The notes under the pieces were generated by a model. The model did not search any database and was not told where the DNA came from. It was given only the letters and a program-made list of their open reading frames with translations. The position numbers were made by a program, and so were the translations under genes. A DNA stretch of 32,840 nt from a virus, in the UHGV virus genome UHGV-0259093; one strand, written 5' to 3'. This document shows, piece by piece, positions 1-514 of the stretch; position 1 is the stretch's first letter, and every line of letters starts with the position of its first letter.

Positions 1-120
1 ACAATGAAAACCACCCGCACAGCGCGCTGGGATATCACTCCCCGAGGGAATACCGGCGGCAGCGGACATCGTTAACTTAAGATACAAAAGCTGTTCGGAG
101 ATGGAGGGTCAAGATCACAC
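1..120 (+). mobile_element. 3' end of an IS element: C-terminal fragment of a DDE (rve-type, IS3-family-like) transposase, reading frame 3 with stop at 78-80; element end approximate
   Basis: Frame-3 translation of 3-80 reads NENHPHSALGYHSPREYRRQRTSLT*, matching the conserved C-terminal H-S-A-L-G-Y-x-S-P-x-E-Y motif of IS3-type DDE transposases. This segment is visibly more GC-rich than the rest of the window. The gene continues upstream of the window. Confidence 0.45.
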
Positions 121-220
121 CCGTAGCACCGATACCATCACCTTGATAGTTATTGAAGATAAACTCTTTATCATCCTGTGTTAGTTGTTTATCTGAATGT
201 ACTAACTCCATCACTTTATT

Positions 221-514
221 GTGATTAGCAGATTCCTTTTTGCTAATTCTTGCCATAAAATACTACCGTACAAATTGTGTACGGGTATTTATGGAATTAT
301 AGTGATGACAGAATCACAATTTGAAACAAACTATCCACGAGATCAGTATAACTATGTACTAAAGAGTCGTCGTGAAAAAGGAAGTATGGGGCAAACTGAA
401 ATCGAAGTTTTCGATATAGTATCAAAGCAGACTGGCGAAAAAATACTTACAGCTACTAGAACTGAACATACTAATTTACGTGGATTAGAAACTACCGTTA
501 GGTGGGAATGGTGA
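221..514 (+). CDS. hypothetical protein; more likely starts at the internal ATG at 305 ([10 protein letters not shown]...)
   Basis: Open frame ending at TGA 512-514, directly followed by a hairpin terminator. No recognisable motif. Confidence 0.35.

Follow-up and report, generated by a model that had tools for sequence, protein, structure and literature searches.

Insertion sequences (IS) of the IS3 family transpose by a copy-out-paste-in pathway that proceeds through a circular intermediate. Members of the IS3-family subgroups duplicate 3-5 bp of target DNA when they insert, the figure for IS2 being 5 bp; to our knowledge a duplication of 3-5 bp is typical of all five IS3 subgroups, as a descriptive trait and not one that defines membership. 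IS elements also enter integrated phages, and in the prophages of O157 strains IS629 interrupts accessory genes. On the phage side, the described system that concerns us is PHROG 3820, one of whose members is the DNA methyltransferase gp140 of Cronobacter phage GAP32 (GAP32_140, YP_006987245).

The window analyzed here is the whole 32,840-nt stretch of the virus genome UHGV-0259093. An original prediction, made from the letters of the window, held that an IS had inserted into a phage gene of a prophage, and the junction, the IS-free allele and a 16-bp duplication described below all bear it out. The sequence features on which it drew were all found again at the coordinates given there. We consider it highly probable that a common E. 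coli IS of 1336 bp transposed into codon 47 of the 237 codons of a prophage methyltransferase gene, with duplication of 16 bp and no loss of sequence.

The insertion sequence at the left edge of the window

Over positions 1-117 (plus strand) the window contains the right end of an IS3-family, IS2-like element of 1336 bp; full E. coli copies have this sequence at their positions 1220-1336, with 100% identity. The window's share of the transposase is confined to the last 25 codons of orfB (DDE/rve domain) and the stop codon, at positions 3-80 on the plus strand; translation of frame 3 gives NENHPHSALGYHSPREYRRQRTSLT and a stop at 78-80. This peptide had been taken for the C-terminal end of a DDE transposase, and it is the same as the end of WP_089617520.1, a RefSeq CDS annotated as "IS3 family transposase, programmed frameshift," which in NZ_CP061754.1 ends where position 80 of the window falls. 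Window positions 1-118 matched 80 records (E ~3e-54), 32 of them at 99% identity or higher, which come from 77 of the 5,426 E. coli genomes searched. Copies with 100% identity lie on many E. coli chromosomes and plasmids, and the similarity is far beyond chance.

Leftward extension, which had been proposed as a check, recovered the whole IS with its transposase and inverted repeats. Full copies are 1336 bp long, start with TGATGTAGCCCCC (TGATGTAGCC...) and end with GGTCAAGATCA. An inverted repeat was expected near the IS end, and when the left end was aligned globally against the reverse complement of the right end, the right terminal inverted repeat (IRR) was placed at positions 91-117, ending ...GGTCAAGATCA. 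In the full copies the repeats are imperfect, about 27 bp long and have TG...CA termini (alignment TGAT.T.G.CCC...). Pfam searches of the complete IS genes on two contigs that carry them (L012 and L027, described below) found HTH_Tnp_1 on the 131-aa orfA product and HTH_21, rve and rve_3 on orfB products of 277-293 aa.

The IS3 family is defined by its reading frames, which are joined through programmed -1 frameshifting, its ends and its length (PMC6211511). Full copies of the window's IS have an orfA with a helix-turn-helix, an orfB with the DDE/rve domain, overlapping frames and a programmed frameshift, as well as imperfect TG...CA inverted repeats and a length of 1336 bp, within the range of about 1.2-1.55 kb. 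Judged by transposase and ends, the element is a member of the IS3 family despite the aberrant length of its target duplication. It does not differ from the E. coli element annotated in RefSeq at NZ_CP061754.1 956076-957411 in its last 117 bp, its TG...CA ends or its 15-16 bp duplications; location alone distinguishes the two, and the window holds one further copy. Like IS2 of E. coli K-12, it is about 1.3 kb long and has imperfect repeats ending in CA, and it has two overlapping frames with a programmed frameshift and an rve/DDE orfB. The termini of orfA and orfB are presumably similar to InsC and InsD of IS2.

The junction with phage DNA

The exact junction between IS and phage lies between positions 117 and 118, where IS-free copies of the prophage cease to match the window. 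Three such copies (L008, L010 and L013) were 100% identical to window positions 118-11289, with 0 mismatches over 11,172 bp, and diverged exactly at that point. The GC content was 0.54 in positions 1-100 and 0.30-0.39 past about 100-150, in keeping with the switch in composition that had been expected by position ~120. The insertion is recent, because in the 11.2 kb that were compared the prophage does not differ from these copies at a single base.

The junction sequence was read in JGI sample 3300029473, in ENA ERZ27271682 and in Logan SRR29868779, samples that are possibly not independent. The exact 59-aa fusion product that spans the junction was called on 10 contigs, for which the collection lists JGI and ENA as sources. 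The phage/IS junction as such is secure, since the fusion reading frame is present on 10 contigs and the junction was read in JGI, ENA and Logan assemblies. Three further searches returned nothing: megablast of window positions 1-2000 against phage records, megablast of positions 118-20000 against plasmids, and the look-up of an exact 29-mer in viral contigs.

The interrupted methyltransferase gene

IS-free loci were retrieved by the exact product of the neighboring 246-codon gene (positions 549-1289), which was found in ten places. Seven of the ten (L008, L009, L010, L011, L013, L014 and L015) are free of the IS and have an intact gene of 237 codons in place of the window's 59-codon reading frame, so the proposed comparison with IS-free relatives yielded the undisturbed allele. 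By this comparison, positions 118-256 of the window (minus strand) are a 5' fragment of the gene consisting of 46 codons plus 1 nt. The intact allele (L008, L009) encodes 237 aa in 714 nt and the IS follows nt 139, inside codon 47. The original prediction had the IS in the gene's 3' part, but it lies in the first fifth, at the 5' end.

The intact protein (L009) matched phrog_3820, "DNA methyltransferase," with E 5e-106, residues 1-237 aligning to profile positions 1-239 of 255. The intact allele belongs to PHROG 3820 from end to end, and the copy in the window spans residues 1-46 alone. Identity to the GAP32 DNA methyltransferase was 45% over the full length, and a sensitive DNA search aligned window positions 144-256 to the start of the GAP32 gene. 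Enterobacterial homologues of the intact protein that bear the name methyltransferase number in the hundreds. The motifs AFFTP, ELCAGIG (residues 70-76) and NPPF (residues 132-135) follow one another in the intact allele, and the order AFFTP, CAGIG, NPPF is common to it and gp140. ELCAGIG, the AdoMet-binding motif I, and NPPF, the catalytic motif IV, align with GAP32_140 and are missing from the window's fragment, which, compared with PHROG 3820 and gp140, retains residues 1-46 fused to 13 residues derived from the IS. The NPPF motif suggests that the enzyme is probably specific for N6-adenine. The intact allele had no match in Pfam or NCBIfam, nor in a sequence search of the PDB; PHROGs and PADLOC both yielded matches.

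Translation of the minus strand from position 256 gives a chimeric reading frame of 59 codons (positions 77-256), 46 from the methyltransferase gene followed by 13 that the IS end supplies; the frame terminates at 77-79. Such a frame, running from 256 into the IS, had been described in the original prediction, and its 59 aa are as translated there. The IS contributes only the 3' end of this frame. The transposase gene and the gene fragment read toward each other, with overlapping stop codons at 78-80 (plus strand) and 79-77 (minus strand), respectively. Inactivation of the methyltransferase is to be expected, because the 5' fragment is without ELCAGIG and NPPF and ends in 13 IS codons, and because the 3' fragment is severed from its promoter and start codon. 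The 59-codon frame at 256-77 is the wreck of a gene and is unfit for annotation as a gene. Upstream of the methyltransferase start, a consensus scan found a promoter-like site, TTCAAA-18-TATAAT, at positions 296-325 (minus strand), which could drive the 59-codon remnant. A perfect inverted repeat with a 7-bp stem (CCGTACA...TGTACGG, positions 266-284) lies between the promoter-like site and the start codon and could be an operator or a hairpin in the 5' UTR.

The complementary junction and the target-site duplication

Products that automated gene calling could yield for the 3' fragment were predicted and then looked up by exact sequence. A C-terminal methyltransferase product of 136 aa was present in the collection, and exact look-ups of predicted C-terminal products of 224, 221, 203 and 185 aa found none of them there. 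The other junction was found on L027 (contig Ga0244122_100009), which comes from the same JGI sample, 3300029473, as L012 (contig Ga0244122_100132), the contig identical to the window. On L027 the IS left end, ...GGGGGCTACATCA, is followed by ATCGGTGCTACGGGTG, the reverse complement of window positions 118-133, and then by the rest of the gene, CTTTCTTTACTCC; read to an alternative extent, the junction runs ...GGTGTTTCAGGGGGCTACATCA, ATCGGTGCTACGGGTG, CTTTCTTTACTCCCGAAATG... From the repeat onward, 6,591 bp of L027 are 100% identical to positions 11157-17747 of the IS-free locus L008 and hold the rest of the gene, a DUF2188 reading frame, the prophage end, bssR, yliI, gstB and dacC to ybjG.

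A search for a target-site duplication had been proposed as well, and one was found: the 16 bp at window positions 118-133, CACCCGTAGCACCGAT, are repeated at the left end of the IS on L027. These 16 bp occur once in the window and once in the IS-free locus L008 (11157-11172), and the repeat cannot be extended on either side. There is a direct repeat at both ends of the IS that is single in the empty site, and the flanks are collinear, the two junctions being on two contigs. Taken together the sequences point to a simple transposition with a 16-bp duplication, in which nothing was deleted. No single contig has both junctions around one uninterrupted IS, and the left junction is present in one sample only (JGI 3300029473). 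Because the 16-bp duplications match and the two junctions co-occur in one sample, we infer that both halves of the gene are continuous in one genome. Of the earlier suggestion that the IS may have truncated the gene, the interruption stands and the loss does not; the gene is split, and its remaining 191 codons lie beyond the IS on L027. A scan of metagenome_contigs did not find the predicted left junction; it also missed the known right junction and is uninformative, since that collection is evidently without these contigs.

A second locus, L028, was considered as the same event and rejected, as its break lies 55 nt deeper in the gene than the IS site and the sequence upstream of it is different and unrelated (L028 1-30). 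This short Logan contig encodes the same 136-aa C-terminal product. It could represent another disruption of the gene, distinct from this one, or an allele produced by recombination.

The prophage setting

Beyond the methyltransferase gene, the IS-free loci have a last short stretch of prophage up to its end, after which come the E. coli genes bssR, yliI, gstB, dacC, deoR, ybjG and mdfA. This stretch has a called DUF2188 gene in four of the seven loci; L008 has the same sequence with no gene called. The DUF2188 gene adjoins the methyltransferase gene (L009 11799-12059, past the IS and outside the window) and matched PDC-S16, a candidate defense family of PADLOC, with E 2.5e-38. The host flank matched 5,425 of the 5,426 E. 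coli genomes and starts at L009 12148-12158, that is, 976-986 bp past the insertion point. The insertion lies about 0.98 kb inside the prophage, measured from the bssR-proximal end, and apart from it the prophage is intact.

The remainder of the window carries lysis, tail, head and packaging genes, and two E. coli prophages that are integrated in yegD match it at about 76% identity. These relatives stop just past their equivalent of the gene at 1350-1643. Because they end there, positions 118-1349 of the window together with the methyltransferase and DUF2188 genes form a region of variable cargo in this arm of the prophage.

Several other features of this part of the window were recorded. The 246-codon gene at 549-1289 (minus strand) lies in very AT-rich DNA (GC 0.23-0.33), and its product has two hydrophobic segments near the N terminus. 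It had no match in Pfam, PHROGs, NCBIfam or PADLOC and is absent from the related prophages in yegD; its product may be prophage cargo, for example a protein for exclusion or abortive infection. A reading frame of 69 codons at 305-514 (plus strand), divergent from the methyltransferase gene, had no family match. It is followed at 519-546 by a strong terminator-like hairpin of 11 pairs with a T-rich tail. Amid the lysis and tail genes, at 2539-2976 (minus strand), there is a gene of the GIY-YIG (SegE-like) homing-endonuclease type, which the relatives in yegD also have.

Contigs that cross the insertion sequence and alternative explanations

Past the complete IS, L012 continues for 434 bp and stops, with no duplication on the far side. 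These 434 bp had plasmid matches only, the best (93.6%) being to an E. coli plasmid with a Klebsiella-type kop, RepB backbone. Seventeen Klebsiella plasmids have an IS at exactly the left junction of L012, and one of them shows a normal insertion with its own 15-bp duplication. The 434 bp were rejected as the true neighbor of the window's IS on two grounds: Klebsiella IncFIB plasmids have them as the fixed flank of an IS copy, and the IS on L012 is a hybrid. Its positions 1-610 are the Klebsiella plasmid variant and 611-1346 the E. coli type (switch at ~611-624; region L012 11173-12942). The IS on L027 is a hybrid too, positions 1-721 being of the E. coli type and the rest a third variant (switch at ~722; region L027 4488-5820), and the third-variant part abuts a type I restriction gene (hsdR). 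In a third assembly, L017, there is another mix of variant positions. Because the sample contains at least three variants of one IS, the contigs that link the IS to plasmid or hsdR DNA are most likely misassembled, through path-switching by the assembler in the repeat. The leftward continuation of the source contig is untrustworthy, as it switches to a Klebsiella plasmid inside the IS.

The internal switches at ~611-624 on L012 and ~722 on L027 are what a crossover would leave, and with an IS lying at exactly the L012 left junction in 17 Klebsiella plasmids, the L012 link might instead be real. It would then reflect homologous recombination between the IS in the prophage and a related IS on a Klebsiella-type IncFIB plasmid (a cointegrate or translocation), and a second recombination would have joined the other half to an IS linked to hsdR. 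We regard this as unlikely. The products are not reciprocal, so that two independent rearrangements would be required; L012 ends 434 bp past the IS, as expected for an unresolved repeat; three or more variants of one IS in a metagenome are the classic setting for path-switching; and the L017 assembly has yet another mix.

The IS could also mark an IS-mediated deletion or, as the original prediction allowed, the boundary of a decaying prophage; the prophage end and the last four-fifths of the gene would then be missing, and the IS would be followed by unrelated DNA. The rest of the gene is indeed absent from the window, and the DNA past the IS on L012 is unrelated to the prophage and begins without a target duplication. 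That DNA, however, is the resident IS flank of Klebsiella plasmids, reached through a two-variant hybrid, and the same sample contains the exact complementary junction: after the 16-bp duplication that was predicted come the gene rest, the prophage end and bssR, all 100% identical to the IS-free allele. With the insertion ~0.98 kb inside a prophage that is otherwise identical over 11.2 kb, a deletion or decaying edge is very unlikely. Finally, that the IS/phage junction is an assembly artefact and the source prophage is IS-free is hardly credible: metagenome contigs through this IS are demonstrably unreliable, but the identical junction is found in 10 contigs and was read in JGI, ENA and Logan assemblies, the IS end and the phage target have no sequence overlap able to seed a false join, and the complementary junction has a 16-bp duplication, of a length typical for this IS, that an artefact would not make.

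We therefore return to simple transposition. In the most probable sequence of events, an IS3-family, IS2-like element inserted in codon 47 of the methyltransferase gene, about 0.98 kb from the bssR-proximal prophage end, duplicating 16 bp of target and removing nothing. Past the IS, the prophage arm continues with the remainder of the gene and the DUF2188 gene region, up to the host junction. Transposition would have been by copy-out-paste-in through a circular intermediate, as membership of the IS3 family leads one to expect.

Length of the target duplication

The 16-bp duplication is not peculiar to this insertion. Direct repeats of 15 or 16 bp, different in sequence at each site, flank six of eight E. 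coli copies of the IS, and on a plasmid of Klebsiella michiganensis its copy is flanked by a repeat of 15 bp. With the present insertion, duplications of 15-16 bp were found in eight of the ten insertions examined (six in E. coli, one on the Klebsiella plasmid and this one), at L001 1282-2617, L002, L003, L022, L024, L025, L026 and, for the window, at 118-133 with L027 5821-5836. The 3-5 bp duplication that is a trait of the IS3 family was not seen with the window's IS (15-16 bp), and the difference from IS2, with its 5 bp, applies to those eight of ten insertions. Our search of the literature, to which ISfinder did not belong, found no report of 15-16 bp duplications in the IS3 family, and nothing relevant came up for ISEcl2 or among general reviews. 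A tentative explanation, which we think possible and rather less than likely, is that the element displays a behavior of the IS3 family that has not been described, namely that of an IS2-like IS whose transposase joins its ends 15-16 bp apart on the target.

Significance

The type of event reported here is already known, the window adding a further copy of an annotated IS in a further prophage gene. Accessory genes of E. coli prophages are often the site of IS insertions, and dozens of genomes already have annotated copies of this IS. Compared with such insertions in E. coli prophages, of which IS629 in O157 is an example, an accessory gene is interrupted likewise and there is no difference in kind. 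On a weaker reading, the knock-out of an orphan phage methyltransferase might be selected in lysogens that have methylation-dependent restriction.

The 15-16 bp duplication is a lead and not a discovery. Produced by an IS2-like element, it may be of interest to specialists in transposition if it is absent from ISfinder. If the ends are indeed joined 15-16 bp apart, the geometry of target capture by this element would be different from that of the other IS3 subgroups.
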